A stretch of 64,000 nucleotides of DNA from Candidatus Pampinifervens sinense (GTDB lineage: Bacteria > Aquificota > Aquificia > Aquificales > Aquificaceae), in the NCBI GenBank assembly GCA_037927135.1, contig JAXSPP010000008.1:19281-83280 (forward strand), in the 5' to 3' direction. The notes beneath the pieces were generated by a model, which saw only the letters and a list, made by a program, of their open reading frames with translations, made no database searches and had not been told where the DNA came from. Shown here piece by piece: positions 44,270-63,321 of this stretch (its first letter is position 1; every line of letters starts with the position of its first letter). Made by a program: the position numbers and the translations under genes.

Positions 44270-44657
44270 ACCTTTCTACTAGCTCAAGTAAAGTCCTAGC
44301 CCTTTCCTTTACCCTTTCCCATTCTTCTATCTCTTCCATAGTTTGGGCTGTAGCAAGCTTCTTTACCGCCTGATCAAAGAGTTCCTTTTCCTTTCCTGGA
44401 TCTATCTCCCCTATATTGTAAGCTTCCTCTGCAAGGATTATGACCTTTTCCGGTGTGACATCCACAAAGCCGTAGGTTACTGCAATGCCATTTTCCATCT
44501 TGCCATCAAAGTAGACAAGCCCAGGCTTTAGCATGGTCATGAGATACATATGCTTTTCCAAAACTCCTATCTCACCCTCTACAGTAGGTATGTTTACAGA
44601 ATTTACCTCTTTAGAAAAGTGCAGGCCCTTGGGCGTGACTATCTCCACCTTAATCAT
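44256..44657 (-). CDS. atpC: F0F1 ATP synthase epsilon subunit
   Basis: EIVTP, GEIGVLEKH, GFVDV, ILAEEA. Confidence 0.92.
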   Translation of the reverse strand: MIKVEIVTPKGLHFSKEVNSVNIPTVEGEIGVLEKHMYLMTMLKPGLVYFDGKMENGIAVTYGFVDVTPEKVIILAEEAYNIGEIDPGKEKELFDQAVKKLATAQTMEEIEEWERVKERARTLLELVERFGRV

Positions 44658-45088
44658 GGCTTTAAAATTATACCATCCTTTTTTCTGCTATCTCTAAAGA
44701 GCTCATGGCATGCCATACAACCCTGTATCATCCATATGTAGGTTTGAAAAGCTTGATCTCTCTTACCTTCCTTTACAAACTTTATGACCTCCTCTGCACC
44801 ACCATGGATTTGTCTTTCAAAGGTAGGCATAAATTTTATAAACTCTTCTCTCTTTGATGGGTCTACGTATTTTAAAGGTCCTCCCTTTGGTGTAGGATGC
44901 TCAGCTATCTCCTTAGCTCCCTCAATTATCAACCAATCGTTGTTTAAAAGAAAGCCTTGAAGCATCTTTATAGCCGACATGTTTACCATCTGCATCACCT
45001 GTTTAAAGGTGAGATTACTTTCTTGCGTATGCTCATGGGCAAAACCAAGACTAAGGCTTAAGGCAAGGGCAAATCCCACTTTTCTCAT
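44654..45088 (-). CDS. Periplasmic monoheme cytochrome c with C-terminal CxxCH (class II / cytochrome c'-like)
   Basis: Signal peptide, helical body, CMACH near the C-terminus. Confidence 0.75.
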   Translation of the reverse strand: MRKVGFALALSLSLGFAHEHTQESNLTFKQVMQMVNMSAIKMLQGFLLNNDWLIIEGAKEIAEHPTPKGGPLKYVDPSKREEFIKFMPTFERQIHGGAEEVIKFVKEGKRDQAFQTYIWMIQGCMACHELFRDSRKKDGIILKP

Positions 45089-45089
45089 A

Positions 45090-45581
45090 CTACAACCTCC
45101 TTATCTTTATCTTCCAGTAGCTACCTTCATAGGCCACATACTCCCATCCCACCTTTTTGGGAAAGGCCATACTCATCTGAAAGTAAAGGGGTAAGGGGTC
45201 GTGGTCGTTTATGATGAAAAAGGCTTCGCCTTTGGCGGTTTTGGAAAACCTTTCCATCACCAAAGGGTGCCTTCTGCCATGCTCTATACTTCTTAAATCA
45301 ATGGTTTCACCATCTTGAAGGCTTTCCCCTCCAAAGGCTATCTCATATATTTCTGCTTCGCCTTCACACATAAAGCCAAATAACTCAGCCCTCTTCACAT
45401 AAAAGACTGCAGGAGCCTCCACCCTATCAAACCTCTGTCCCAGTATGTACCTTCCCGAGCCCTTTGAAAGGATATAAACCCTCTCATAGCCTACCGCCGA
45501 GGGCATAAGGGTGTCTTTTAAAAGCCTTAGATAAACGCCATCTAAACTAAAGCCCTTTCCTACTTCGGGTATTACCAGCAT
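45090..45581 (-). CDS. Cupin-like + DUF2249 domain protein
   Basis: C-terminal IDLR...RH...INDHDPLPLYFQ...W.I.I DUF2249 pattern. Confidence 0.75.
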   Translation of the reverse strand: MLVIPEVGKGFSLDGVYLRLLKDTLMPSAVGYERVYILSKGSGRYILGQRFDRVEAPAVFYVKRAELFGFMCEGEAEIYEIAFGGESLQDGETIDLRSIEHGRRHPLVMERFSKTAKGEAFFIINDHDPLPLYFQMSMAFPKKVGWEYVAYEGSYWKIKIRRL

Positions 45582-45646: not shown

Positions 45647-47584
45647 TCACCTTAGAACTACAAAGCTCCCAGTAGCATCATCGTAAGTTATAAGCACGCT
45701 CTCTTTTGGTTTTTGGGGTGTTTCAAACTCAATTTCTTTCACCTTCTCCTTATGGGCTATCTCTTCCAACCTTAGCCTTAGTTTTTTCCCTTTGGGTTCT
45801 AAAAAGATCTCATCATAGACAAAGAGTGAAGCATCCTTTCTTAGACCCCTTGGATAAAAGGTCTTTGAGTAAATCGTCTTTCCTTCTGAGATTATTTCCA
45901 CCTTAATAGGTGACCTCTCCTTTGCTATAGCCAGCTGTGTTTGCATATGCTTTAGACCCTCTTTTTTAACCATGGCTTCCTTGACAGGAGAGGACCTATA
46001 CTTAAAGTTTAGAACCACTGCAGATTTGTGGGTAGGATAAAAGGACATCTTATAAGTTGTTAGAGGATAGAAAAGAAAAGTTGGTATGGTAAGGATAAGT
46101 GTGGCTACTACGTAGTTTGTCTTTTCTAAAGCTATTATCTTGGGTTCTTTACCAGTTTTTTCTTCCTTCATAAACTCATCCACTTCCTTTTCAATGGGTT
46201 TTACGTAAGGAGCCTCCAGTATAAGCACCTTTCCTCCCAACACCCTTTTCCTCAAGATAGGTCTTCTTTCCCTCTTGTACCTTTCCTCCAACCATTTGTT
46301 GCCTTCCCTAAAGTAGCAGTCCTCATACTCACAGGAAACTAGGATAAGGCCTTCCAATCCCATATCAAGTAGCTCCTCTGCATAGAGGGTATTTACAGCA
46401 CCTATACAAGGCACTGTAAAGGAAAGAAGCCCTTTTCTCTCAGGAAGCTGGGCGCTAAAAGGACATCTAAAGGCTAAGTAAGAGGGCTTTTCTTTCCTCA
46501 CCCTCTCTATTATTTCCACAATAGGAAAAGTGGGAATGTCTATACTTTTTACACTGCAAGACCCTACACATATACCACAGCCGGCACACTTTCCTTCATT
46601 CAAAACAGCCTTTTTATCTCCATCAAAGCTTCTCATGGTTATGGCCTCATAAGGACAGTCTATATAACACTGCTCACATCCAGTGCATCTTTCAAGGTTT
46701 ATTTGTGCGGGAGGGTTTCTCCTTCCCTTTATGAGCCATGGGAAAACAAAAAGGAAGGTGAAGAATCCTAAGAATAGGATCCAATTGGCAGACATGGGAA
46801 GGTATTTAAGAAGTGGATAGCCAAAGAAATAAAACCAGTCAAGGCTCATCTCAAAGGGTAGCTTTTCTATGTAGGCTGGTGGGTCACTCTTTGCGGGGAA
46901 AAGTATGGAGAGGGCTATAAGAAGTAAGGTTATGGTTATATAAAGGAACTTGGGAGGTATGAGCCTTGGCCTTGCATTTCTCATCACATGAATCCAAAGG
47001 GTAAAGACTATGAGAATGGTGAGGGCTATGTGGGCAAAGAGGAGTATTCTGAAGAGGCCACTCAGATACTTTACATCTTTGCCAAGGAAAGCACTCATAA
47101 GAACATCTCCAAAGACTGGTAGAAAAGAAAAGAACTTAGCAGTCAGTATTCCAAGGAGCTGTGCCTTTGTGTCCCAAACTAGGATATAACCAGAGATGCC
47201 TATGGCTAAAAAGATGAGTAAAGTAGCGATCCCTGTCACCCAAGCCACCCATCTAAAGAGTCTAAACCTATCTGTTATGATCACGTGAATCATATGAGCG
47301 ATAGTGGTAAGAATCAAGGCATCAGATGAGTACCTATGTATGCCTCTCATTATGTTTCCTAAAAAGCTGTGTGATATAGCTTCCACCGAAGCATAGGAAG
47401 ATTTTGGATCTATGCTGTAAAAAAGGAAGAGGTAAACACCAGAGATTACATCTATGACAAGAAGGAATACAGCTATAGCTCCAAGGTGGTAGAGTGGGTT
47501 TAGCCTGGAGGAAAAAAACTTGCTTAAGGTGTAGGAGATCTTTTGGAAGGCTATGTAAAAGGGTTGTATGCTTATCACTTCCAT
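45647..47584 (-). CDS. Cytochrome b / 2x[4Fe-4S] / MvhD-like [2Fe-2S] multidomain membrane protein
   Basis: Cytochrome b His pairs (RGIHRY...AHMIH; FAHIA...WIHV); CTGCEQCYIDCP and CAGCGICVGSC; MvhD-like FRC...VPCIG...SCEYEDCYF; further C-terminal TM plus soluble domain. Confidence 0.82.
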   Translation of the reverse strand: MEVISIQPFYIAFQKISYTLSKFFSSRLNPLYHLGAIAVFLLVIDVISGVYLFLFYSIDPKSSYASVEAISHSFLGNIMRGIHRYSSDALILTTIAHMIHVIITDRFRLFRWVAWVTGIATLLIFLAIGISGYILVWDTKAQLLGILTAKFFSFLPVFGDVLMSAFLGKDVKYLSGLFRILLFAHIALTILIVFTLWIHVMRNARPRLIPPKFLYITITLLLIALSILFPAKSDPPAYIEKLPFEMSLDWFYFFGYPLLKYLPMSANWILFLGFFTFLFVFPWLIKGRRNPPAQINLERCTGCEQCYIDCPYEAITMRSFDGDKKAVLNEGKCAGCGICVGSCSVKSIDIPTFPIVEIIERVRKEKPSYLAFRCPFSAQLPERKGLLSFTVPCIGAVNTLYAEELLDMGLEGLILVSCEYEDCYFREGNKWLEERYKRERRPILRKRVLGGKVLILEAPYVKPIEKEVDEFMKEEKTGKEPKIIALEKTNYVVATLILTIPTFLFYPLTTYKMSFYPTHKSAVVLNFKYRSSPVKEAMVKKEGLKHMQTQLAIAKERSPIKVEIISEGKTIYSKTFYPRGLRKDASLFVYDEIFLEPKGKKLRLRLEEIAHKEKVKEIEFETPQKPKESVLITYDDATGSFVVLR

Positions 47585-47927: not shown

Positions 47928-48458
47928 ATGAGCCTGCTACCACCTGAAGAAGGATGGTACTTTAAGAAGGTAGCAAAGGATGAGAAGATGTGGATAGCCC
48001 TTGCCTTAGTGGTATGCCTTATCCTCTTTTTCTGGATGATTGTCTGGCACATCTACGGAAAGCAAAACCCCTCCTTTACCACCTACAGAACAACTCCTCA
48101 GGAGTTTAACGCTCTGGCTACAGCCTTTATAGAAAAGTACAAAGTAGGTGAGATGAACGGAATACCTGTGGTTGAACCGCCACCCAACAGCGATGTTTTC
48201 CTTGTGGCCAAGATGTGGAGATGGGAGCCCGTTTTGGTGCTCAAAAAGGGCCAAGAGTACAGGTTCCACATATCTTCTTTAGATCTCTTACATGGCTTTT
48301 CTTTGCAACCTGTCAACATGAACTTTATGGTCTATCCGGGATATGACTATGTGCTTACCTTTAGGCCTACCTCTGCTGGGGAGTTTGCCATAGTGTGCAA
48401 TGAGTTTTGCGGTATAGGACATCACATGATGATAGGAAAGATCATAGTCAAAGAATAA
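47928..48458 (+). CDS. Heme-copper oxidoreductase subunit II with CuA site
   Basis: Single TM; DLLHGF and CNEFCGIGHHMM CuA ligands (B-family-like architecture). Confidence 0.9.
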   Translation: MSLLPPEEGWYFKKVAKDEKMWIALALVVCLILFFWMIVWHIYGKQNPSFTTYRTTPQEFNALATAFIEKYKVGEMNGIPVVEPPPNSDVFLVAKMWRWEPVLVLKKGQEYRFHISSLDLLHGFSLQPVNMNFMVYPGYDYVLTFRPTSAGEFAIVCNEFCGIGHHMMIGKIIVKE

Positions 48459-48469
48459 GGAGGTAAGCC

Positions 48470-50137
48470 ATGTTTAGGATGTGTGATATTACAGGCCTAA
48501 AGGTGGACTTAAATGCCGAAAAGCTTATAAAGCTTAACGCTGTTATGGCCGTTGTCTCCCTTCTTATCGGTGTGATCGGAGCCCTCCTTTTGGTGCTCAC
48601 AAGATGGCAGGTGGTGCATCTTTTGCCGGTGGATTGGTACTATAGAGTGCTCACCCTTCATGGCCTCAACGCCTTAATATTCTGGATAGTCTTCTTTGAG
48701 ATAGCAGGCCTCTACTTTGGTTCTACCATAGTGCTAAACTCTAGGATGTCTTCACCAAAGCTTGGATGGTTTGCCTTCATCCTTATGGTCCTAGGCTTTC
48801 TCCTTGTCAACTACACCATACTGACTGGAAAGGCTGACGTTTTGATGACCTCTTACGCTCCTTTGCAGGCACACCCAGTTTATTATCTAGGCATTATCCT
48901 TTTTGCAGTTGGTGCCCTCATAGGTGTTCTTCTTTTCTTTGCAAACCTTATGATAGCTAGGAAAGAAGGGACATATGGAGATTCCCTACCTCTGTTTACT
49001 TACGGTCTTATGGCAGCTGCCATAATAGCCTTTATAACCCTTGCCACTGGCGCCATAATATATATTCCCACCTTCCTTTGGTCTTTGGGAATCATAAAGA
49101 GCATAGATGCGGGTGTTTATAAGCTCGTCTGGTGGGGTTTTGGACATTCCTCACAGCAGATAAATGTAACGGCTATGATAGCCGTGTGGTATCTTGGAGC
49201 TTTTCTTACGGTTGGTGGTACATCCATCAATGAAAAGGTAAGCAGGATAGCCTTTCTCCTTTACATTATAGGTATAAACGTAGCTTCAGCACATCATCTT
49301 TTAGTAGACCCAGGGCCTAGCCCCGTTTGGAAAGTCTTTAACACAAGCTACATCATGTACTTGGCAGTCCTTGCCTCTATGATACATGCCTTTGCTGTTC
49401 CATCCGCCATTGAATCGGCCCAAAGGAGAAGAGGCTTTACAAAGGGTCTTTTTGACTGGCTCAAAAACGCTCCATGGGGCAACCCAGCCTTTTCGGCCAC
49501 ATTCCTTTCTATCATCATCTTTGGCTTTATAGGTGGTATAACGGGTGTAGTAAACGGTATGGAACAAACCAACATAATAGCCCACAATACCCTTTCCATA
49601 CCAGGACACTTTAAAGGAACTGTGGTGGGTGGAACTACCTTAGCCTTCATGGGTATTACCTACTACCTTATACCCCTTGTGTTTAGAAAGCGCATCTCCT
49701 TCTTTGGTCTTGCCAAGCTACAGCCTTGGGTTTTTGGCATAGGGATAGCCATATTGGCTGTATCCATGTACATACTTGGAGCCTTTGGTGTTCCAAGAAG
49801 ACACTACGATATTACCTTCTCCGGAGGACCCTTTACCTATACTTTTAACCCAGCTACAGACTTCTTCTGGGCCCTCTTTGCCATAGGTGGCCTAATGGCT
49901 GTTATAGGTGCCTTAATGTGGATACTTATAGTGGTCTTTTCTGTCTTCTTTGGTGCTCCTTTGAGAGGTCCTCAGGATATGCAACTTCAAATAGCCTCAC
50001 CCCCACCACCAGCCAAAGAAAACCATGGCTTTGAAGCTCCAGGAACTCTTGCCCTTACCCTTCTCTTCATGGCCACCTTCATCATATTCCTACTTCTCAA
50101 CTGGGGATGGCTCGCAGCCATGTGGGAGGTAAGGTAA
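48470..50137 (+). CDS. Heme-copper superfamily subunit I, eNOR-like (putative nitric oxide reductase)
   Basis: H64 (LHG); helix VI GH226SSQQ230 with Gln where O2 reductases have the cross-linked Tyr; H275H276; helix X GH380FK382; PRR loop. Confidence 0.8.
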   Translation: MFRMCDITGLKVDLNAEKLIKLNAVMAVVSLLIGVIGALLLVLTRWQVVHLLPVDWYYRVLTLHGLNALIFWIVFFEIAGLYFGSTIVLNSRMSSPKLGWFAFILMVLGFLLVNYTILTGKADVLMTSYAPLQAHPVYYLGIILFAVGALIGVLLFFANLMIARKEGTYGDSLPLFTYGLMAAAIIAFITLATGAIIYIPTFLWSLGIIKSIDAGVYKLVWWGFGHSSQQINVTAMIAVWYLGAFLTVGGTSINEKVSRIAFLLYIIGINVASAHHLLVDPGPSPVWKVFNTSYIMYLAVLASMIHAFAVPSAIESAQRRRGFTKGLFDWLKNAPWGNPAFSATFLSIIIFGFIGGITGVVNGMEQTNIIAHNTLSIPGHFKGTVVGGTTLAFMGITYYLIPLVFRKRISFFGLAKLQPWVFGIGIAILAVSMYILGAFGVPRRHYDITFSGGPFTYTFNPATDFFWALFAIGGLMAVIGALMWILIVVFSVFFGAPLRGPQDMQLQIASPPPPAKENHGFEAPGTLALTLLFMATFIIFLLLNWGWLAAMWEVR

Positions 50138-51399
50138 TGCTCTTCTTCCTCTCCCTTTCTCTCTTTTCACTCCTTCTTGCTGGCATCTTCGGGCTCCTCA
50201 TAGCCCTCACAAGGGCTCCCCTCTTTAAACTCCTTGATTCACCCCTTCTCTTTTACCACTTTTTAGTGGGCCATGTGACCTTTTCTATTACAGTCTGGCT
50301 TATGACCTTTGGTATGGCCTTTTGGCACTACAAGGAGGGCAGGAAGGGGAAGGTAGCACCTCCAGCCACCCTACTCGGTATGCTTTTCCTTTCCCTCTCC
50401 TGCCTTTTTCCCTATGGACAGCCCCAACTCAACAATTATATACCAGTCATAGAGAATCCTATCTTCTACGCAGGCCTTACTCTTTTCTTCTTGGGCTTTT
50501 CTTCAGAGGTACTTTTTAGACTACCGAAAGCTGTAAAAAGCCTTTTGACCCAAGATACACAAACACAACTACTGTCCTTATCCATTATCTTTGGCCTTTT
50601 GACAGTGCTGTCCCTTCTTCTATCCTTGCTCCTTGTAAAAGGTGAAGGAAAGCTCTACTTTGAAAGGCTCTTTTGGATACCTGGACACCTTCAGCAGTTT
50701 ATGTACACAGCCCTTATGCTATGCGTATGGCATGAGCTATTGAAGAAAAACTCCGGAGTGCAAATATCAAGCCCCATTATAAGCTCAGCAAACCTCTTTA
50801 TGCTCCTTTTCTCCTTGACCCTCTTTTATGGCTACCTTACAGATATGCTCTCCCATGGCTTTAGGCTTCTTGTGGTCCTCTCCTTTGGAATAGGCTTGGG
50901 TGTGCCCGTCTTTGTACACACCTTCTATGTGCTAAGGAATATGAGGATAAACAAGGATGTGTCTACCTTGTCCTTGGTCTCTTCCATGCTTGTGTACTAT
51001 GTAGGCGAGTTTATAGCCTACGGTGGGATGCAGAGCGACCTTAGAATACCGGCCCATTATCATGGTGTAGTTTCCGGAGTAACCATAGCCTTTATGGGCC
51101 TTACCTACTATATGCTAAAGGAAAGGCTTGGTTTTGTAAGCTGGGAGAAGTTTGCCAAGCTTCAGCCTGTCATATTTGGTCTTGGTATAAACCTTTTGGT
51201 GATAGGTTTTTACATTGCTGGCCTTTTGGGAGCACCAAGAAAAACTTATGGCTTTGAGTATGTGCAAAAGGCTGAGGTACTTCTTGCTTTGAACGTGATG
51301 GGTATGGGAAGCTTGCTCGCCGTAGCTGGCGGACTTCTCTTCCTCTTTTACTCCCTTGCATCCCTTCTGAGGGTATACAAACATGGTAAAGGTTCTTAG
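50137..51399 (+). CDS. Degenerate heme-copper subunit-I paralogue (polytopic membrane protein)
   Basis: VGHVTFS, FWIPGHLQQF, IPAHYHG, GAPRK; no HH motif; ATG 50137 overlaps the upstream TAA. Confidence 0.72.
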   Translation: MLFFLSLSLFSLLLAGIFGLLIALTRAPLFKLLDSPLLFYHFLVGHVTFSITVWLMTFGMAFWHYKEGRKGKVAPPATLLGMLFLSLSCLFPYGQPQLNNYIPVIENPIFYAGLTLFFLGFSSEVLFRLPKAVKSLLTQDTQTQLLSLSIIFGLLTVLSLLLSLLLVKGEGKLYFERLFWIPGHLQQFMYTALMLCVWHELLKKNSGVQISSPIISSANLFMLLFSLTLFYGYLTDMLSHGFRLLVVLSFGIGLGVPVFVHTFYVLRNMRINKDVSTLSLVSSMLVYYVGEFIAYGGMQSDLRIPAHYHGVVSGVTIAFMGLTYYMLKERLGFVSWEKFAKLQPVIFGLGINLLVIGFYIAGLLGAPRKTYGFEYVQKAEVLLALNVMGMGSLLAVAGGLLFLFYSLASLLRVYKHGKGS

Positions 51400-52114
51400 T
51401 CTCCTTTTTATACTCCTTTCCCTTTGTTTCTCCAACCTTTTGCCCGATGAAAAGAAAACCATCGGCACCTATATGCCTAACATAAGGCTTCAGGACCATG
51501 AGGGGAAGGTCTATAGCCTAAAGGATCTTTCGCAGGGTAAGGTTCTCATAATAAATCCCATATATACCAAATGCTCCTCCGCTTGTCCTGTAATGACAGA
51601 AGAGCTAAAGAAGGCTATAAAAGGCCTTGAGGAGGATGTAAAGGTCCTTTCCATAACCTTTGACCCACGGGATAGTATATTGGACCTAAAAAGGTTTAGG
51701 GAAGTTCATAGTCTTCCAAACAACTGGCTTGTGGCAAGGAGCGATGAAGTGGATAAGCTTTTAAAGGCTATAGACTACAAGTACAGGTATGATGAGAGGC
51801 TTAAAGAGTTTGAACATCCCAACCTCTATGTGGTCATTACACCTTCCGGAAAGATATCAAGATACATATACGGCGTGAGTCCAAGGCTTAGAGACCTAAG
51901 GCTCTCAGTGCTTGAGGCAAAAAAAGAAGACGCAAGCCTTACCCCTGTGGAGAGCTTCTGGCTTAGATGCTTTAGATACAACATAGAGACGGGCACTTAT
52001 CAGATAGACTGGTTTTTCATCTTTGATGTGATGGGAGGTCTTCTTACCTTCATTGTAGTTCCTCTCTTGGTTTGGGGAAGACAGCTTTGGGTCCTATTAA
52101 AGATTTTTCGGTAA
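51383..52114 (+). CDS. SCO1/SenC family copper chaperone
   Basis: YTKCSSACP (CxxxC), SITFDP, FEHP; C-terminal TM. Confidence 0.88.
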   Translation: MVKVLSLLFILLSLCFSNLLPDEKKTIGTYMPNIRLQDHEGKVYSLKDLSQGKVLIINPIYTKCSSACPVMTEELKKAIKGLEEDVKVLSITFDPRDSILDLKRFREVHSLPNNWLVARSDEVDKLLKAIDYKYRYDERLKEFEHPNLYVVITPSGKISRYIYGVSPRLRDLRLSVLEAKKEDASLTPVESFWLRCFRYNIETGTYQIDWFFIFDVMGGLLTFIVVPLLVWGRQLWVLLKIFR

Positions 52115-52171: not shown

Positions 52172-52186
52172 CAAGGAGGTGTGGAC

Positions 52187-53836
52187 ATGAAAAAGTACCT
52201 GCTTAGTGGGATCTTTGGAATGGCAACAGTCTTTGGCCTTTTCACTGTGGTGCCTTCCTTGGCGCAGCAAAAGGAGGATCTCCCCGCCCTCTCTCAAGAG
52301 GAGATGAAGAGAGCAGCCCAGATCTACTTTGACAGGTGTGCTGGATGCCATGGAACTCTTAGAAAAGGTGCCACTGGACCAAACCTATTGCCCGAAAAGA
52401 CAAGGAAGATGGGTGTGGAGACGCTCAAAACCTTTATAACCTATGGAACGCCCGGTGGTATGCCAGACTGGGGAAGGCAGGGATTGCTTAGCCCTCAGGA
52501 GATTGAGCTTTTGGCCAAGTTTTTACTCCATGAGCCACCACCCCCACCAGAGATGTCCTTGGAAGACATGAAGAAGCATTGGAAGGTGTATGTTCCACCG
52601 GAAAAGAGGCCAAAAAAACCCGAACACAACAGAAACTGGCAGAACTTTATGGCTGTCATACTTAGAGATGCTGGAAAGGTTGCCATAATTGACGGTGATA
52701 CAAAGGAACTCGTGAACATAGTGGACACTGGCTTTGCAGTCCATATAGTAAGGTATTCAGCCTCCGGTCGTTATCTGTACACCATAGGAAGGGATGGAAA
52801 GGCTACAATAGTGGACCTGTGGATGAAAAAGCCAGATACGGTTGCTGAAGTAAAAGCATGCTATGACGCAAGGTCTATAGACTCATCCAAATACAAAGGT
52901 CCAAAGGGAGACTTTCTAGATAAGTATGCCATCATAGGATGCTATTGGCCTCCTCATATGGTAATACTGGACGGGCAAACTTTGGAACCTCTAAAGATAA
53001 TTTCAACGAGCTCTTATACCTATGATACTAATGAGTTTGTAAGGGAGGCAAGGGTAGCATCCATAGTGGCTTCCCACCATGACCCAGAGTGGGTGGTAAA
53101 CATAAAGGAGGCTGGACAGATATGGCTTGTGGACTACTCTAACATACGCGCCCCTAGGATAACCATGATAGAGGCAGAGAGGTTCCTACACGATGGCGGT
53201 TGGGATGCCTCAAAGAGATACTTCTTGGTTGCTGCAAACTTCAGAGACACCATATCCATAGTGGATACTAAGGAAAAGAAGCTTGTCAAGAATGTAAAGG
53301 TGGGCAGAATACCACACCCAGGAAGGGGTGCCAACATAGACCATCCCAAGTATGGACCCATATGGTGCACAGGACACCTTGGAGACAACACCATCCAATG
53401 CATTGGCACAGACCCCGTCAGGTATCCCCAGTATGCCTTTAAGGTAGTTGCCAAGTTTGAAATGCCCGGTGAGGGTGGAGGAAACCTATTTATAAAGACT
53501 CATCCCAAATCCCCCCATATTTGGGTAGACAGGCCTCTAAATAACGACCCTAAACTGCAAAGGTCTATCTTTGTCTTTGACAAATACACCTTTAAGCTAA
53601 AGGCTCAGATAGAGATACCAGAAAAGTATGCTGGAAGGGCTGTCCATCTTGAGTACAACAAGAACGGTGATGAAGTGTGGGTCTCTGTTTGGGGTAAAAA
53701 GAACGAGCCACACAAACAAGCCATACTTGTTTACGATGACAAAACCCTAAAGCTCAAGCATGAGATCACAGGAGACTGGGTGGTAACTCCCACTGGACAC
53801 TTCAACGTCTACAACACCATGAAGGACATCTACTGA
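52187..53836 (+). CDS. nirS: Cytochrome cd1 nitrite reductase
   Basis: Signal peptide; CAGCHGTLRKGATG heme c; GFAVH, FLHDGG, PHPGRG, LFIKTHP, TGHFNVYNT; AAGGAGG SD fits ATG 52187. Confidence 0.96.
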   Translation: MKKYLLSGIFGMATVFGLFTVVPSLAQQKEDLPALSQEEMKRAAQIYFDRCAGCHGTLRKGATGPNLLPEKTRKMGVETLKTFITYGTPGGMPDWGRQGLLSPQEIELLAKFLLHEPPPPPEMSLEDMKKHWKVYVPPEKRPKKPEHNRNWQNFMAVILRDAGKVAIIDGDTKELVNIVDTGFAVHIVRYSASGRYLYTIGRDGKATIVDLWMKKPDTVAEVKACYDARSIDSSKYKGPKGDFLDKYAIIGCYWPPHMVILDGQTLEPLKIISTSSYTYDTNEFVREARVASIVASHHDPEWVVNIKEAGQIWLVDYSNIRAPRITMIEAERFLHDGGWDASKRYFLVAANFRDTISIVDTKEKKLVKNVKVGRIPHPGRGANIDHPKYGPIWCTGHLGDNTIQCIGTDPVRYPQYAFKVVAKFEMPGEGGGNLFIKTHPKSPHIWVDRPLNNDPKLQRSIFVFDKYTFKLKAQIEIPEKYAGRAVHLEYNKNGDEVWVSVWGKKNEPHKQAILVYDDKTLKLKHEITGDWVVTPTGHFNVYNTMKDIY

Positions 53837-55449
53837 TGAGATACCTACTTCTTCCCCTACTCCTCCTTTCCCTTTCCTTTGGGGTAGGGGAGGGGCTTTA
53901 TCAAAAGTATTGTTCTTCTTGTCATGGTGAAGACAGGCTTGGGAGGGGTGCACCTCTCCTCTTTCCCCCCTTTTTTATACCAAAGTCTGAAGAAAGAATA
54001 TACCAGGTGATAAAAAAGGGCACCATTGGAATGCCAAGCTTTGAGCATCTAAAAGAAGATGAGATAAGGGCCATAGTTGAGTTTATAAAAGGGCCTGTGG
54101 ATGAAAATAAGTTAAGGTGGAGCAGAGAAGACATAGAGAAGAGCCAAAGCCTATCTCATGTGGAAAAGGTAAGGATAAACAACCTGAGGGGCCTTACTGT
54201 AATGGTGGAGAGGGGGAAAGGTCTCCTTTGGGTGATGGAGGGCTTGGAGGTCCTCAGCAAGGTCCCTGTATCTTACGTGCATGGTGGGGTAAAGTTTTCT
54301 AAGGATGGAGAAGTTTACATACCGTCAAGAAGTGGATGGATAAGCAAGTACTCGCCGGAGAAGGGAGAGATAAAAAAGGTAAGAGCCTGTATATACCTGA
54401 GGAACATAGCTCTCTCTTCTGATGGGAAAGTTCTTGTAGCCTCTTGCTGGCTTCCTCCCTCCCTGGTCTTTTTTGACAAGGACCTAAGACTTATACAGAT
54501 AAAAGAGGTAAAAGGCAAGATAAACGCAGTTTATGAGCTTCGCAACGGCAAAGGCTTTATCTTTACCTTCAGAGACAGGCCCTATGTGGGTCTTTTGAAC
54601 AAGAATGGAAGAATAACCTACAAAGAGCTAGATATCAGCTTGGAAGACTTTACCATAGACCCCCTTGAAGAGTACCTTATAGGTAGCACAAAAGACGGCC
54701 TAAGGATATACTCTTTGAAGGACCTAAAGCTTGTAAAGGAGCTAAAGGCCCTTGGCCTTCCTCACCTTGCTTCTTCCTACTTTTGGTACTCAAAGGGTGA
54801 GTTTTACTTTGCCACCCCACTCCTTGGAAAGCCCCTCCTGTCTATATGGAAGGCTTATAAATGGGAGCATGTAAAGGACATTCCTCTCAAAAGCTTTGGC
54901 TTTTTGGCAAGAAGCAACTATGGCACACCTTATGTATGGGTGGATGAATCCTCGGACACCTTGGCCCTTTTGGACAAAAGAAGCTTAGAGCTAATAAGAA
55001 TAAGGCCAGTGGAAGGCAAAAGGGCTACGCATACAGAGTTTTCCTCAGATGGCAGGCTTGCCTACGTGAGCCTTGAGGATGCTTTAATAATCTATGATGG
55101 AGTGAGCCTCAAAAAGCTAAGAGAATTCCCTGCAAGTATGCCCGCTGGAAAGTATAACTTCTTTAACAAAAGTAGAATCTTTGAAGCTTCCCAGCTTGGC
55201 CATCAGGTTTTTATGGAAAAGTGTTGGGGATGCCACCATACCACAGAGCAAGCCTTTGGACCTCCACTAAAAGGGTCTGCCAAGAAAAGGGATAAGGCCC
55301 TCATAATGGCCCAGATACTTGACCCGCAGAATACCCATAAGCTCTTGGGATATTCAAGGAACGTCATGCCACGTATAGACCTAAGAGAAGAGGAGCTAAA
55401 GGCCCTCATAAGCTTTATGGAGGCGTTAAAGGATGGCTGGATGGATTGA
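53836..55449 (+). CDS. nirN: NirN-like dihydro-heme d1 dehydrogenase with extra C-terminal cytochrome c domain
   Basis: N-terminal CSSCHGEDRLG, HGGVKFS, GLPHL, THTEFS, PAGKYN; second CWGCH...MP domain at the C-terminus. Confidence 0.8.
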   Translation: MRYLLLPLLLLSLSFGVGEGLYQKYCSSCHGEDRLGRGAPLLFPPFFIPKSEERIYQVIKKGTIGMPSFEHLKEDEIRAIVEFIKGPVDENKLRWSREDIEKSQSLSHVEKVRINNLRGLTVMVERGKGLLWVMEGLEVLSKVPVSYVHGGVKFSKDGEVYIPSRSGWISKYSPEKGEIKKVRACIYLRNIALSSDGKVLVASCWLPPSLVFFDKDLRLIQIKEVKGKINAVYELRNGKGFIFTFRDRPYVGLLNKNGRITYKELDISLEDFTIDPLEEYLIGSTKDGLRIYSLKDLKLVKELKALGLPHLASSYFWYSKGEFYFATPLLGKPLLSIWKAYKWEHVKDIPLKSFGFLARSNYGTPYVWVDESSDTLALLDKRSLELIRIRPVEGKRATHTEFSSDGRLAYVSLEDALIIYDGVSLKKLREFPASMPAGKYNFFNKSRIFEASQLGHQVFMEKCWGCHHTTEQAFGPPLKGSAKKRDKALIMAQILDPQNTHKLLGYSRNVMPRIDLREEELKALISFMEALKDGWMD

Positions 55450-55921
55450 AAGCATATCAAAGATAAGGAGGCCCCATTTGGGTGAGGATGTGCCAGTGTT
55501 GGTGTTTAGAGCCTTTAGGGTATTCACGGGCATGTATTTGGAGGATACGGTGGGCCATAAGGGAGCTATAACCCTTGTGCAGAACGCAGGAAGAGAGTTT
55601 GGAAAAGAGGTGGGCAAAAGGCTAAGACATGAGGATTTAGACAAATACATCATGAATGTGGCGGACTTTGTCAAAGACCTACGAGTGGGCCTCTTAATAC
55701 CAATTGAAAGGAGTGAGGAGAGGATCGTGGTAGCTCTTGATGAGTGTATTACATGCTCCGGCATGCCAAACATAGGAAAGAAGATATGCCACTTTGAGGC
55801 TGGCTTTGTGGCTGGTATAGTGGAAAGCTACCTAAACAAAAGGGTAAGGGTTTATGAAAGCAAGTGCAACGCCCATGGAGACAACGTATGCGAAGTGGTG
55901 GTGGAGCTCAACTATGCTTAG
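55433..55921 (+). CDS. Stand-alone V4R domain protein
   Basis: ECITCSG...ICHFEAGFVAG...ESKC...GD..CE V4R pattern. Confidence 0.8.
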   Translation: MAGWIESISKIRRPHLGEDVPVLVFRAFRVFTGMYLEDTVGHKGAITLVQNAGREFGKEVGKRLRHEDLDKYIMNVADFVKDLRVGLLIPIERSEERIVVALDECITCSGMPNIGKKICHFEAGFVAGIVESYLNKRVRVYESKCNAHGDNVCEVVVELNYA

Positions 55922-57002
55922 GATGACGGAGTACTTAAGGGAAGTGTTGGAAGGGAAAAAGGTAAAAGCTTTTGGAGACAGTGTTATACTCATATGGAAC
56001 CTCACCAACAGATGCAACCTCTACTGCAAGCACTGCTATTCCTCTGCAAAGGACATAAGGTCCTATGAGCTCACTTCAGAAGAGGCAACAAACCTTGTAA
56101 AAAGGCTACCCCATATCAAGGTAAAGTTTGCTATCCTCTCCGGCGGTGAGCCTCTGTTAAGGGAGGACCTCTTTCACATAGCAAAACTTTTAAGAGAGCA
56201 AGGCATAAGGACCTACCTTTCTACCAACGGCCTACTTGTTAGAGAGTTTATAAGGGATATAAAAGAGCATTTTGATTATGTTGGGATAAGCATAGACGGA
56301 GAGCCACAGGTCCATGACCTCTTTAGGGGCAAGAGAGGCGCCTTTGAAGAGTCTCTTAATGCCATAAGGCTATGCCTTGAGGAGGGCATAAGGGTTGGAC
56401 TTCGCTTTACCCTCGCTCCCCAAACGGTCAAGAGTCTGCCCTTCATATTCAACCTTGTAGAAAGGGAAGGTATTCCCAAGATTTACATATCTCACCTTGT
56501 CTACTCTGGAAGGGCCAAAAGGCTAACGGACCTGGAAAAGAAGGAGTACAGAAAGGTTGTCAAGTTTATAATTGACAAGGCCTTTGAGTATGTGGAAAGG
56601 GGAATACCCATAGACATAGTCACCGGAAACAACGAGGCGGATGCAGTCCTTCTATATGAAGAATTTTCTAAAAGGTATGCAGACCTATCTGACAGGCTTT
56701 ATGAGAGGCTCTTGCTTTGGGGAGGAAACCAGGCGGGCGTGAGGCTCATAAACATAGACCACCTTGGAAGTGTAAAGCCAGACCCCTTCTTCTTCCACAG
56801 CGTAGGCAATGTGAGGGATGAGGACCTTGTGAAGATATGGCAGGGTAATGGACTACTTAGCTTTCTAAGAGAGAGGCCAAGGAGGCTAAAGGGAAGGTGC
56901 GGAGGATGTAAATACATAGACATATGCAACGGGAACTCAAGGGCAAGGGCCTACGCGGTCCTTGGCGACTGCAGGGAGGAGGATCCAGCATGCTACTTAT
57001 AG
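55914..57002 (+). CDS. nirJ: Heme d1 biosynthesis radical SAM protein
   Basis: WNLTNRCNLYCKHCY, SGGEPL, ISHLVYSGR, GNNEADA, SPASM Cys cluster; ATG 55914. Confidence 0.88.
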   Translation: MLRMTEYLREVLEGKKVKAFGDSVILIWNLTNRCNLYCKHCYSSAKDIRSYELTSEEATNLVKRLPHIKVKFAILSGGEPLLREDLFHIAKLLREQGIRTYLSTNGLLVREFIRDIKEHFDYVGISIDGEPQVHDLFRGKRGAFEESLNAIRLCLEEGIRVGLRFTLAPQTVKSLPFIFNLVEREGIPKIYISHLVYSGRAKRLTDLEKKEYRKVVKFIIDKAFEYVERGIPIDIVTGNNEADAVLLYEEFSKRYADLSDRLYERLLLWGGNQAGVRLINIDHLGSVKPDPFFFHSVGNVRDEDLVKIWQGNGLLSFLRERPRRLKGRCGGCKYIDICNGNSRARAYAVLGDCREEDPACYL

Positions 57003-58024
57003 TGCTTTTGCTCCTGCCAATCTTTGCCTTCTGTGAAAAGCTCTATGTGGTAGAGAGGGAAAGGGGAAAATTGGCGGTTATAGAGGATGGGAGGCTGAAG
57101 GGTGAGATAGGGGGGCTTGGAAATCTAAACCATGCAACGGTGAAGTTTTACAAGGGTTTTGCCTATGTGATAAGCAGGGATGGCTTCCTTTCAAAGATAG
57201 ACCCAGGGGAGGACAAGCTTGTAAAAAGGGTAAAGGTGGGCAACAGCGGTATAGGCCTTGACTTCTTCAAAGGGTATGTGCTTGTGGCCAACTATGACCC
57301 GGATAGTGTGGTGCTATTGGATATGGACCTAAACCTTGTTAAAACCATAAAAACAGACTCAAGGAATGTGGGTATAAAGGCTTACTCTTCTGGCTTTGTT
57401 TTTGCCCTCATGGACAGGGATGAGGTGTGGGTTGTGGAGGGAGAAAAGATAAAAAGGTTAAAGGATGTTGGGAAGATGCCCTTTGATGCTTTGCTATACG
57501 AAGATAAATACCTTGTGGGCTTTTTTGGAGAGCCCTCCCTTGGCATCTTAGACTTAAAGAAAGGTGAATACAAAAAGATAGCTCTAAGTTCTAACGGAGA
57601 GGCTGTTTTTAAGATACCTCACTTTGGCACATGGGGTGTGGTGGATGGAATGGCCTATGTGCCGGCGGTGGGAGAAAGGAAGCTATACCTATTGAACTTA
57701 AAAGAACTAAGGCTGGAGGGAAGTATAGACCTTCCTGGCCTTCCAGTATTTGTAGTGGCTTCTCCCGACAAAAGGCTTTTGGTCGTCAACTTCAGCGGTG
57801 ATAGGGAAGACTACATAGCCCTTGTGGATGTATCCGAAAGAAAGGTGATAAGGGAGGTAAAGGCTGGCAAAAGGATAATGCATATGCGCTTTTCCAAGGA
57901 TGGCAAAAGGCTATATATCTCTTCCTACTTTGATTCTAAGCTAAGGGTTTTGAGCCTTCCAGACCTAAGGCCTATTCAAGAAGTGGATGTCCCAAACCCA
58001 TCGGGCATTTTTGTTTTGCCATAG
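56990..58024 (+). CDS. nirF: Heme d1 biosynthesis beta-propeller protein
   Basis: VVERE, LNHA, SRDG, MPFDA, KIPH, GLPVF, HMRF, PSGIF; ATG 56990. Confidence 0.85.
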   Translation: MLLIVLLLLPIFAFCEKLYVVERERGKLAVIEDGRLKGEIGGLGNLNHATVKFYKGFAYVISRDGFLSKIDPGEDKLVKRVKVGNSGIGLDFFKGYVLVANYDPDSVVLLDMDLNLVKTIKTDSRNVGIKAYSSGFVFALMDRDEVWVVEGEKIKRLKDVGKMPFDALLYEDKYLVGFFGEPSLGILDLKKGEYKKIALSSNGEAVFKIPHFGTWGVVDGMAYVPAVGERKLYLLNLKELRLEGSIDLPGLPVFVVASPDKRLLVVNFSGDREDYIALVDVSERKVIREVKAGKRIMHMRFSKDGKRLYISSYFDSKLRVLSLPDLRPIQEVDVPNPSGIFVLP

Positions 58025-58034
58025 GAGGTGTGCT

Positions 58035-58787
58035 ATGGGTAAAGTATACCTTGTGGGCGCAGGACCGGGAGACCCAGAGCTTTTAACGCTAAAAGCTTTG
58101 AGATTAATAAAGTCCGCAGACGTTATCCTCTACGACAGGCTCATAAACCAAGAGATACTTCTTTTTGCCAAGCCAGACTGTGAGCTTATCTATGTAGGAA
58201 AAGAAGATGGAAAACATACCATAGAACAAGAGAAGATAAACGAGCTTTTGCTTGAGTATGCTCACACAAAGGAAGTGGTGGTAAGGCTAAAAGGAGGAGA
58301 CCCCTTCATCTTTGGAAGGGGAGGAGAAGAGGCCCTCTTTTTGGCAGAGCATGGCATAGAGTTTGAAGTAGTTCCGGGAGTGAGTTCCTTTTATTCAGTG
58401 CCAGCCTATGCTGGCATACCGATAACCTTCAGAGGCATATCTTCATCCTTTGCCGTAATAACGGGACATGAGGACCCAAGAAAGGAAAAATCAAGCATAG
58501 ATTGGGAGAGTCTAAAAGGTATAAACACCTTGATAGTTCTAATGGGGGTCTCAAGGAGGAAGGAGATAGCCAGAAAGCTAATAGAGGTAGGAAGAGATCC
58601 AAAGGAGCCTGTGGCCTTTATAGAGAATGGTACCACAGAGAGGCAGAGGGTGATTCTAACAGACCTTTATGAGCTTTCCACAAACCCGCCTGAGGTAAAC
58701 CCACCTGCCATAATGGTGGTGGGAAGTGTGGTAAGGCTCAAAGAAAAGCTCTCTTGGTATGAGGCTACCTTACATAACACTCCTTGA
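58035..58787 (+). CDS. nirE: Uroporphyrinogen-III C-methyltransferase
   Basis: VGAGPGDPELLT, RLKGGDPFIFGRGGEE; position in the nir operon; ATG 58035. Confidence 0.9.
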   Translation: MGKVYLVGAGPGDPELLTLKALRLIKSADVILYDRLINQEILLFAKPDCELIYVGKEDGKHTIEQEKINELLLEYAHTKEVVVRLKGGDPFIFGRGGEEALFLAEHGIEFEVVPGVSSFYSVPAYAGIPITFRGISSSFAVITGHEDPRKEKSSIDWESLKGINTLIVLMGVSRRKEIARKLIEVGRDPKEPVAFIENGTTERQRVILTDLYELSTNPPEVNPPAIMVVGSVVRLKEKLSWYEATLHNTP

Positions 58788-59442
58788 CATACTCCTTTAG
58801 CCTATTTGCTAAACTCTTTAGCTCCTCTTCTGTGTAAGTAGTTTTATGCCTGTAGCTTGGGTCTAAGGTTTTTCTTGGGTTGAACCTCTGAAGATAATAC
58901 CTTTTTGCCCCTTTTATAAGGCTTCCAACCTGAAGAAGGTCTTCCTCTGAAAGAAGCTCCTTCACCACAGTGGTCCTAAACTCATAATCTTTTGCCCTCT
59001 CCATTATAAGCCTTATACTCTCTTCTATCCTTTTCACATCCACCTTTGCCCTTACCACCTCTTCATACTTATAAAGGGGTGCCTTTACGTCCATGGCCAC
59101 ATAATCCAAAAGGTCTATTATCCTCTCAAGAGGCTGTGGATTGTGGCCGTTGGTGTCTAGCTTTACAAGATAGCCCATATCCTTTATCCTTTTTATAAAG
59201 TCTTCCAAATCCCTTTGAATAGTTGGCTCTCCACCGCTTATGACCACACCCTCCAACATTCCCCTTCTTTTCCAAAGGAAAGAAATTATCTCCTCTTGAG
59301 GAATACTTTTAGCTGTGCATAGAACAAGCTCAGGATTTTGACAGTAAGGGCACCTAAAATCACATCCTTGAGTAAAAACTATGCAGGCCATCCTGTTAGG
59401 ATAGTCTATCAGGGTAAAGCTTTGAAAGCCCCCTATGTTCAT
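58765..59442 (-). CDS. Anaerobic ribonucleoside-triphosphate reductase activating-like radical SAM protein
   Basis: IDYP, GCDFRCPYCQN, SGGEPT, KLDTNG, EFRTT. Confidence 0.8.
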   Translation of the reverse strand: MNIGGFQSFTLIDYPNRMACIVFTQGCDFRCPYCQNPELVLCTAKSIPQEEIISFLWKRRGMLEGVVISGGEPTIQRDLEDFIKRIKDMGYLVKLDTNGHNPQPLERIIDLLDYVAMDVKAPLYKYEEVVRAKVDVKRIEESIRLIMERAKDYEFRTTVVKELLSEEDLLQVGSLIKGAKRYYLQRFNPRKTLDPSYRHKTTYTEEELKSLANRLKEYVKECYVR

Positions 59443-60435
59443 CTAAACCATCCTCTCATACCATCTGTAAAATTCTTCTGAGAAGTAGCTTATCCTCTTC
59501 TTTTTGAACTCTCTTGTGGAGAAAAGAAGTGCATAGTCCTTTAGGCCAAACCCTTGGCTTATGCTTTTTACAAACCTTTTTACCTCTTCCTCCTCTTTTC
59601 CATGTATCATTGCAAAGAGGTTATAATCCCAGCCAAACCTCTCATAGCAATGGGACACACTCTTAAAGCCTGCCAAATATCTGCCTACCTCTTCTATCAT
59701 ATCTTCTTTGACCTTCCAAACTGTCATGGCGTTGGCACTAAATCCTACCCTTCTGTGATAAAGGATGGCGCTTATTCTCCTTAGAATACCCCTTTCTTTG
59801 AACTCCAATAGCTTTTCAATAAGCTCATCCTCTTTCATATTTAGCCTTTTGGCATAATAATCAAAAGGCCTGCTTACCAAGGGCATATCCTCCTGCGTAA
59901 TTCTTACTATGAGTTTTTCTTCCTCAGTTAAAGGTCTATAGTCATAATTTTTTAGGCTTACCTCCTCCCTTTCCATGAGGGATTCATAGCTCAGCCTCAC
60001 CCCTATCTTAAAGACCCTTTTGGCCCTGAGTATCTTATAATCCAAAGCATCTACCTTCTCAGCCATATACCTTACCGTGTCTTCTAGGCTCACACCCACA
60101 TCAGGGGGTACCGCTATGGTAAACCACAGGTTGAACTCATGTGTTCTTTCATAGTTATGGCTCACTCCAGGATGGGTGTTTATAAAGGATGCGGCCTCTT
60201 CTATGCGTTCAGGCTTTACCTTAAAGGCAACCAAAGAAGAATCATAGCCCAGCATCCTTGTATCGTATATAGGTGCTATCTGCCTTACAACCTTATCTTC
60301 TTTAAGCCTTTCTATGGCTTTTATAACCTCATCCTCTCCTATGCCAAGCCTTTCGCCTATCTCCAAAAAGGGCCTTTTTACAATAGGGATCTCCTCTTGA
60401 AGGGTTTTTAGAAGACCCTCAAGGCTCTCTATCAT
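59443..60435 (-). CDS. nirDL: Fused siroheme decarboxylase NirDL (AhbA/AhbB-like)
   Basis: Two Lrp/AsnC-like repeats: GVSHNYER...FNLWF and HRRVGFSANAM...VSHCYER. Confidence 0.88.
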   Translation of the reverse strand: MIESLEGLLKTLQEEIPIVKRPFLEIGERLGIGEDEVIKAIERLKEDKVVRQIAPIYDTRMLGYDSSLVAFKVKPERIEEAASFINTHPGVSHNYERTHEFNLWFTIAVPPDVGVSLEDTVRYMAEKVDALDYKILRAKRVFKIGVRLSYESLMEREEVSLKNYDYRPLTEEEKLIVRITQEDMPLVSRPFDYYAKRLNMKEDELIEKLLEFKERGILRRISAILYHRRVGFSANAMTVWKVKEDMIEEVGRYLAGFKSVSHCYERFGWDYNLFAMIHGKEEEEVKRFVKSISQGFGLKDYALLFSTREFKKKRISYFSEEFYRWYERMV

Positions 60436-62526: not shown

Positions 62527-63321
62527 ATGTGGGCAATTTTGACTATTTTAATCCTCATTTCATATCTAAAAATCCCCTTAGCTTCAATAAACCTTGATCA
62601 ATATCATGTTATATTTGTACCGGAGGAACATACTAGCGCAGAAGATCATAGTTTTCAGCTAAGTGTAATAGAGCATCTTCATAGGAAGGGTTATAGATTA
62701 ATCATAGCTATGGAGATGTTTCAACAACCATTTCAAACATTTTTGGATCAATACATAGACTGTCAAATAGATGAGAGAGAAATGCTGATAAAAACAGAGT
62801 ATGAAAAAAGGTGGGGATTTGATCCTGCCCTTTACAGGGATATATGGAGGTTTGCAAAGGAAAAAGGGATAAAGATAGCGGCCATAAACTTGCCTTCTGA
62901 GCTGATAAGGAAAATAAGGACAGAAGGCCTTGAAAGGGTAAGGGATGATCTTTTGCCCGCACCAATCATTGAACAGACAGATTATGAAAGGAAGAGATTG
63001 AGGGAGGTGTTAAAGAATCATCCAAAGGTGGATGAGAGAAGCTTTTTTGATGTGCAGAACGCTTGGGATAATGGTATGGCGCTTGCTATAGCTAGGCTTT
63101 TGGAAAGGTATCCAAGCCATAAGATAATAGTTCTTGTGGGCAGAGGTCATGCTTACGATTATGACAGTGGCATACCTAGGAGGTTGAAGATAATGAGAAG
63201 CGATGTAAGGATGAAGATATTAAGAAGGGAAGACTATTCTAATGGTCTCCTGTTCTCTATAGATTTTTCCAGGGATAGTTCGTCTGCCAGCTCTATTAAG
63301 GATCCAAACTGCAATCCTTGA
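62527..63321 (+). CDS. ChaN/EreA-like family protein
   Basis: EEH...H..QL, AMEMFQQPFQ, WD..MA, VLVGRGH. Confidence 0.75.
   Translation: MWAILTILILISYLKIPLASINLDQYHVIFVPEEHTSAEDHSFQLSVIEHLHRKGYRLIIAMEMFQQPFQTFLDQYIDCQIDEREMLIKTEYEKRWGFDPALYRDIWRFAKEKGIKIAAINLPSELIRKIRTEGLERVRDDLLPAPIIEQTDYERKRLREVLKNHPKVDERSFFDVQNAWDNGMALAIARLLERYPSHKIIVLVGRGHAYDYDSGIPRRLKIMRSDVRMKILRREDYSNGLLFSIDFSRDSSSASSIKDPNCNP

Follow-up and report, generated by a model that had tools for sequence, protein, structure and literature searches.

A copper-less paralogue of heme-copper oxidase subunit I, encoded in an eNOR operon, belongs to a family linked to heme A synthesis and oxidase assembly genes

We describe here an unusual gene in a 64,000-nucleotide stretch of DNA from Candidatus Pampinifervens sinense, a member of the Aquificaceae (contig JAXSPP010000008.1 of assembly GCA_037927135.1, positions 19,281 to 83,280; this whole stretch is called the window, and positions are given in its own numbering). 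The gene follows directly on that for the catalytic subunit I of an eNOR-type nitric oxide reductase, and its product, here called para, is a real homologue of subunit I of the heme-copper oxidoreductases (HCOs) and no chance open reading frame (ORF). To judge from its residues, para keeps the predicted pockets for two hemes, a bis-His low-spin site and a His-ligated high-spin site together with an Arg/Lys pair for the propionates. Two of the three metal-B histidines are gone, and so is the active-site Tyr/Gln position; on this pattern it cannot build a binuclear centre and thus is not a reductase of NO or O2. The widespread family of para is wired to CtaB, CtaA, CtaM and SCO through operon and fusion, and these repeated associations lead us to favour, at what we regard as an even chance, a role in the biogenesis of heme-A-type oxidases, as a factor that binds heme and has no copper, the copy in the window being dedicated to the eNOR and acting with the SCO protein encoded downstream.

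The kinship of para with HCO subunit I is plain. The Pfam family COX1 (PF00115) matches it with an E-value of 4.7e-19 and 69 bits against a curated cut-off of 34.8, which together with the 12-helix core places it in the superfamily; at E<=0.1 COX1 is the sole Pfam match, with no SURF1 family beside it, and an NCBIfam scan at the same threshold returns no cbb3 or other model, its single match (E 0.072) being to an unrelated family. A phmmer search against the PDB sequences finds nothing at E<=1, and the ESM Atlas matches are to generic COX1 clusters only. Profile-profile comparison with hhalign relates para to eNOR-type subunits with a probability of 100% (E 1e-45, 24% identity) as against 95% (E 4e-8, 19% identity) for 28 A-family subunits from the loci fetched, so that by sequence para is nearer to the eNOR/B lineage than to the A family, and it is probably from the former lineage of subunit I that it derives. 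The AlphaFold model, for which 47 sequences were aligned, shows 12 helices, a predicted local distance difference test score (pLDDT) of 92.9 and a predicted template modelling score (pTM) of 0.93; it is ba3-like, which bears out the heme-copper fold expected in an earlier note made on this DNA from its letters alone. With this model Foldseek retrieves 86 PDB matches at E<=1e-3, the top ones being the Thermus thermophilus ba3 oxidase (TMq 0.79) and the Aquifex aeolicus B-type oxidase (TMq 0.80), and the closest folds are B- and A-family subunits. Ratios of nonsynonymous to synonymous substitution rates (dN/dS) against four orthologues are 0.11-0.18 for para and 0.04-0.06 for the catalytic subunit; para is under purifying selection, about three times more relaxed than that on its neighbour.

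The source labels of the family are "cbb3-type cytochrome c oxidase subunit I" or "hypothetical". While para and the cbb3 subunit I, CcoN, do share a superfamily (Pfam COX1), para matches no cbb3 model and has the B-family ba3 oxidases as its nearest structures, and the cbb3 name appears to be a generic label.

Residues of para were equated with those of ba3 and of eNOR-type subunits from phmmer and hhalign alignments (Table 1), and conservation was counted in the 150 best representatives of an HMMER search made without any motif. That search yielded 982 representatives at E<=1e-3, 688 at E<=1e-10 and 116 at E<=1e-30, the weaker of which will include true subunits I. The predicted axial heme ligands, namely the helix II and helix X histidines of the low-spin site and the helix X histidine of the high-spin site, are all in place: H46 is kept in 146/150, the remaining four being gaps, and H307 and H309 are each kept in 149/150, as are R368 and K369, which align with the Arg pair of HCOs that we take to be the heme-propionate pair. 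H184 (146/150), W180 (148/150) and Q187 (143/150) are conserved as well, and the 47-sequence alignment gives the same invariants. The metal-B site is another matter. Gly232 and a gap stand where ba3 has its HH pair (H282/H283), HH is found near the helix VII position in just two of the 150 representatives, and H184 is left as the single histidine of the three that ligate CuB or FeB. Phe188 aligns with Q230 of the main subunit, hence with ba3 Y237, and para has neither the cross-linked active-site tyrosine of the O2-reducing HCOs nor the eNOR glutamine; the position varies across the family (F, V, L, Y or I). The motifs VGHV (within LVGHV), FWIPGHLQQF, AHYHG and GAPRK, the absence of the HH pair and the dependence of the whole idea on histidines conserved in homologues (146-149 of 150) had all been put forward in the earlier note, and on each of these points it was right.

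In A-type oxidases a helix I arginine binds the formyl group of heme a. Arg26 of para was considered as its equivalent and dropped, for the hhalign alignment to A-family subunits puts it three residues off.

Set beside subunit I of eNOR, the B-family-related NO reductase of Hemp & Gennis and Murali et al. 2024, para is alike in its 12-helix COX1 fold, both heme-ligand sets, the Arg/Lys propionate pair, the helix I LTR motif and a Gln placed three residues past the His of helix VI (Q187 of para aligning with eNOR Q229). It is unlike eNOR in having one of three metal-B histidines and no HH pair, in the Phe at the cross-link position, in being about 135 residues shorter and in forming a clade of its own.

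Residues 50-495 of the main subunit I next to it align with subunit I of the Thermus ba3 oxidase (phmmer, E 5e-48), with H64, H226, H275/H276 and H380 corresponding to ba3 H72, H233, H282/H283 and H384, and its Q230 takes the position of the cross-link Y237. A Gln replacing this Tyr is the eNOR diagnostic in the retrieved text of PMC8756737 (citing Hemp & Gennis 2008), and the main subunit is of eNOR type by this token. At the second low-spin ligand position, where ba3 has H386, it has K382. The earlier note had read this as the loss of a heme ligand that para retained, the two proteins having complementary ligand sets, an idea that we had to abandon. In the retrieved portions of Murali et al. 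2024 (PMC11214002) the low-spin heme of some eNORs is ligated by His and Lys, and its supplementary tables give one ENOR for Hydrogenobacter thermophilus; the main subunit thus conforms to a variant already described, and to say that it has simply lost a heme would be wrong. Ten eNOR-type subunits taken from loci with para have Lys (seven) or His (three: L036, L071 and L079) at position 382, Glu77, Gln229 and Gln230 being invariant in all ten. Since the His-bearing eNORs also carry para, para does not exist to compensate for Lys382. The retrieved text of PMC11214002 and of its preprint further gives heme A-type cofactors in both eNOR sites and ctaA/ctaB as often found in eNOR neighbourhoods.

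Loci with para were collected from one-genome-per-species contigs by a peptide pattern containing PAHYH (153 matches, 144 confirmed, 80 kept), and neighbours were labelled by phmmer with window proteins and with Pfam-verified locus proteins, Pfam having confirmed CtaA, UbiA/CtaB, DUF420, COX1-3 and SCO in the 12 loci inspected. Where at least 900 bp of upstream flank was available (68 loci), the gene directly before para is CtaB in 52 cases, an eNOR-type subunit I in 11 and DUF420 in one; four loci have none of these there. Downstream, in 70 assessable loci, the next gene is DUF420 in 29, SCO in nine, coxII in two and the gene for a cytochrome b/iron-sulfur (cyt b/FeS) fusion in two, with nothing recognised in 28. 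The typical order, COX3-SCO-COX2-COX1 (A-family)-CtaA-CtaB-para-DUF420, occurs in Aquificota, Thermodesulfobacteriota, Nitrospinota and Nitrospirota, and in five loci (L021, L023, L046, L051 and L061) the ctaA-ctaB-para triad is kept without adjacent oxidase genes. The earlier note had made para dependent on eNOR-like operons; since 52 of the 68 assessable loci have ctaA-ctaB and no eNOR, para is not an eNOR-specific partner. Fourteen loci are of eNOR type, CtaB lying beside the cluster in five and the cyt b/FeS gene accompanying 12 of them. The window conforms to what the earlier note had said of it: phmmer at E<=1e-3 finds no ctaA or ctaB, and likewise no DUF420 or A-type oxidase gene, in its 64 kb.

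A quick maximum-likelihood tree of 76 paralogues and nine catalytic subunits, whose long branches and unrooted outgroup limit inference on the order of events, puts the paralogues in one group apart from the catalytic subunits (99% in the Shimodaira-Hasegawa-like approximate likelihood ratio test, SH-aLRT). The window copy falls in a clade of 10 eNOR-operon rows, from Aquificaceae and one Nitrospirae; its sister group (99%) has 59 rows, nearly all of them ctaAB-linked, and archaeal and Rokubacteria-type eNOR-linked copies are deeper branches. Three metagenome-assembled genomes (MAGs) hold an eNOR-linked copy together with one of the ctaAB clade (L001+L031, L002+L041 and L004+L044). When long homologues were scanned with Pfam, four (P0030, P0044, P0122 and P0133) proved to be single polypeptides of para and SCO, in the same order as the window genes, and P0158 to be a fusion with UbiA/CtaB; P0265, whose source name is protoheme IX farnesyltransferase, is a second para-CtaB cluster. 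Three others (P0211, P0231 and P0245) are fused to TPR domains, and four contain COX1 only or nothing that Pfam recognises. R26, H46, Y101, W180, H184, Q187, H307, H309, R368 and K369 are kept in 12/12 rows made up of the window protein and 11 long homologues. The loci L078 and L079, which had been taken for further para-CtaB fusions, were rejected, the two genes lying in different frames and being merely adjacent.

From the arrangement in the window one might suppose instead that para belongs to the eNOR complex itself, as a structural or electron-relay subunit in a permanent heterodimer with the catalytic one. It is translationally coupled to subunit I in the Aquificaceae and stands within the structural operon in 11 loci, yet most of the family is found elsewhere than in eNOR operons, either among the assembly genes of A-type oxidase clusters or with just ctaAB as neighbours, and even in eNOR clusters the position of para is not fixed, being before coxII in L036 and after coxI elsewhere. 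Moreover, the fusions go to assembly and biosynthesis proteins, and none to the catalytic subunit was seen among the 13 long proteins scanned or in the single match of a search for longer proteins. We consider such a subunit improbable. A complex prediction from the alignments of eNOR subunit I and para scored 0.00 in two runs made without controls and carries no weight either way. The heme-binding, non-catalytic partner proposed in the earlier note survives in part: of the options it named, heme delivery or heme modification fits best with the ctaA, ctaB, DUF420 and SCO neighbours and the CtaB and SCO fusions, while the specificity for eNOR falls away.

If para is indeed a biogenesis factor, it would take up farnesylated heme (O or A) from CtaB/CtaA into its Cox1-like pockets and either hold this heme or hand it over to the nascent catalytic subunit I, and it would be in physical association with SCO, the factor that equips subunit II with CuA. 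The copy in the window would be an eNOR-dedicated member, co-translated with eNOR subunit I and SCO, and a second, ctaAB-linked copy would serve the A-type oxidase in related genomes. More tentatively, we speculate that the missing heme A insertion chaperone of many bacteria and archaea is a pseudo-enzyme version of subunit I: it would load heme O or A from CtaB/CtaA and deliver it to the genuine subunit I, and would also dock SCO and perhaps subunit II. With a dedicated paralogue for every oxidase or NO reductase of a cell, it would be analogous to Surf1 in function but have the fold of its own client.

The likeness to the heme a chaperone Surf1/Shy1 is one of proposed role only, that is, the supply of heme A to subunit I and the existence of oxidase-dedicated paralogues; there is no kinship of sequence or fold, Surf1 being a two-helix protein with a periplasmic domain. 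In the retrieved text of PMC9145763 the paralogues Surf1c and Surf1q are oxidase-specific within one genome, and the three MAGs with one eNOR-linked and one ctaAB-clade copy of para offer a parallel. The other natural comparison is CtaM, the assembly factor identified with DUF420 in the portions of PMC9145763 and PMC8239418 that were consulted. The former source, in those portions, describes its assembly role as not yet defined at the molecular level and CtaM as dispensable for the insertion of hemes a and a3 in B. subtilis. Like para, CtaM has genomic ties to ctaA/ctaB and oxidase genes, and it is encoded directly downstream of para in 29 of the 70 loci; unlike para, it is an unrelated protein of four to five helices. 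Surf1 and CtaM are each absent from many lineages, and a conserved, easily recognised family that mimics the heme pockets of its client would be a concrete candidate for the heme-insertion step.

Several observations weigh against a biogenesis factor. The binding of heme by para, and the type of heme, are predictions drawn from alignment, and for these the helix X histidines of the loci fished with PAHYH are not independent evidence, as the counts in the 47 sequences and the 150 representatives are. Four of the 68 assessable loci (L031, L074, L076 and L077) have no cta or HCO neighbour. In the last three the neighbours of para are unrelated genes, and in L031 (L031:1-2251) the ORFs upstream of para match transposase DDE and Cas12f1/TnpB-like (TNB) Pfam domains and not ctaB; the MAG in question is the closest to the window organism (87% identity in the eNOR-linked copy), and here the usual cluster may have been disrupted by an insertion. 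The invariant distal residues His184, Gln187 and Trp180 round a five-coordinate heme exceed the needs of a passive carrier and could imply ligand chemistry. Finally, two associations are easier to read as electron transfer. The long homologue P0151 is a fusion (Pfam) of para to a quinol-type cytochrome b, whose cytochrome part shares 35% identity across 245 aa (E 2e-38) with the N-terminal region of the cyt b/FeS protein of the window. In a Methylocystaceae MAG (L080:6160-7972) para is followed by an overlapping gene for a 148-aa CuA-type cupredoxin that is 32% identical to the subunit II of the window and keeps its H, C, C, H and M; the pair sits between ctaA-DUF420 and ctaB-COX2-COX1-CtaG-COX3, and no eNOR-type catalytic subunit is found in that locus.

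These associations suit an alternative in which para is a redox helper, its two hemes forming an electron wire for cofactor maturation with no carriage of heme to the client. Such a protein might keep heme ferrous for CtaB, feed the O2-dependent oxidation by CtaA, or reduce Cu(II) or thiols for SCO. Heme O synthase needs ferrous heme, and to our knowledge the electron donor of bacterial CtaA has not been identified. The P0151 fusion, with its cytochrome b homologous to a product of the window, the cyt b/FeS gene at 12 of the 14 eNOR-type loci, the cupredoxin partner in L080 and the conservation of every ligand of a two-heme chain would all be accommodated, and the invariant distal His, Gln and Trp help to keep the idea alive. 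A general helper, however, would need no client-specific paralogues in one genome, the ctaAB-type loci have no cytochrome b or cupredoxin partner beside para, and a five-coordinate site with a conserved distal pocket would be superfluous for simple electron transfer. On balance we think a redox helper rather unlikely, though it is the chief competitor of the biogenesis factor.

Alternatively, para might be a stand-alone heme enzyme, or a sensor, acting on a small ligand (O2, NO or H2O2) at its copper-free high-spin heme and, for instance, shielding heme A synthesis or oxidase assembly from NO or O2. The invariance of His184, Gln187 and Trp180 would suit such chemistry, and the members in L074, L076 and L077 do stand alone; the neighbours of the family are nevertheless mostly biosynthesis and assembly genes, not stress or regulatory ones, and we give the proposal little credence.

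The HCO superfamily itself is known, and so is the process to which the role favoured here, that of a heme-handling biogenesis factor, would belong. Text queries of PMC11214002 and its preprint, PMC8756737, PMC8239418, PMC12808453, PMC9145763, PMC7327177 and PMC3128077 returned no account of the paralogue, and no description of a copper-less subunit I paralogue linked to ctaA/ctaB was found in the literature searched, most subscription journals lying outside its scope. There is also a warning for annotation, in that para genes could be miscounted as terminal oxidases or NO reductases in metagenomic surveys of respiration and N2O production.

Table 1. The para gene, its diagnostic residues and the neighbouring genes, in window coordinates
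Feature	Position	Strand	Remarks
Copper-less HCO subunit I paralogue (para)	50137..51399	+	420 aa, 12 transmembrane helices
His46 codon	50272..50274	+	LVGHV; aligned with ba3 H72, helix II low-spin heme ligand
His184 to Gln187 (GHLQ)	50686..50697	+	FWIPGHLQQF; H184 aligned with ba3 H233, single retained helix VI metal-B histidine
Gly232	50830..50832	+	aligned with first His of the HH metal-B pair (hhalign)
His307-Tyr-His309	51055..51063	+	AHYHG; aligned with ba3 H384 (high-spin) and H386 (low-spin), helix X
Arg368-Lys369	51238..51243	+	GAPRK; aligned with main subunit Arg443-Arg444 (hhalign)
eNOR-type catalytic subunit I	48470..50137	+	555 aa; Pfam COX1 229.8 bits
CuA-type cupredoxin subunit II	47928..48458	+	176 aa; Pfam COX2 25.6 bits; carries H...CNEFCGIGHHMM, presumably the CuA motif
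SCO1/SenC-family protein	51383..52114	+	243 aa; CSSAC; C-terminal membrane helix; Pfam SCO1-SenC 43.2 bits
Cytochrome b6-like + 2x[4Fe-4S] + FlpD/MvhD-like fusion	45647..47584	-	645 aa; Pfam; divergently transcribed from the operon
cd1 nitrite reductase NirS	52181..53836	+	directly after SCO; Pfam Cytochrom_D1 428.6 bits

The operon to which para belongs runs on the + strand in the order subunit II, subunit I, para, SCO, and then nirS with a full heme d1 biosynthesis cluster. The earlier note's description of a translationally coupled, polytopic protein of some 420 residues is accurate: the ATG of para (50137), preceded by GGGAGG, overlaps the TAA of subunit I (TAATG; GGGAGGTAAGGTAATG), and its TAG (51397-51399) lies 17 nt within the SCO gene, which begins with the ATG at 51383. 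In all four orthologous loci checked (L001, L002, L003 and L007) the start is the equivalent ATG at the subunit I stop, and the database twin of para, P0001, has 420 aa as well. A longer ORF from 50107 is unsupported, the orthologues beginning at the ATG equivalent to 50137.

The SCO protein has an N-terminal signal or anchor in addition to its C-terminal membrane helix, and before the latter a conserved L-x-C-F-x-Y-(D/N) segment that is present too in the para-SCO fusions P0030 and P0044; it may represent a distinct SCO subfamily. The cyt b/FeS fusion might serve as electron input to eNOR and NirS or, alternatively, be part of the maturation machinery.

Further downstream, the region 52181-60435 is a complete cd1 nitrite reductase/heme d1 cluster. 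Besides NirS it encodes a 537-aa cyt c-D1-cyt c protein, a V4R-domain protein (55433-55921), a NirJ-like radical SAM enzyme, a NirF-like D1 protein, a SUMT methylase, a second radical SAM enzyme and a NirDL-type siroheme decarboxylase. On the other side of the operon a 144-aa ORF (44654-45088, - strand), next to a gene for a DUF2249 protein (45090-45581), matches no Pfam family at E<=0.1; a signal-like segment at its N-terminus is combined with CMACH (CXXCH) at the C-terminal end, a layout that, we presume, recalls cytochrome c'. At the edge of the denitrification region (62527-63321, + strand) a ChaN/Tiki-type heme-binding protein is encoded (Cofac_haem_bdg, 177.9 bits).

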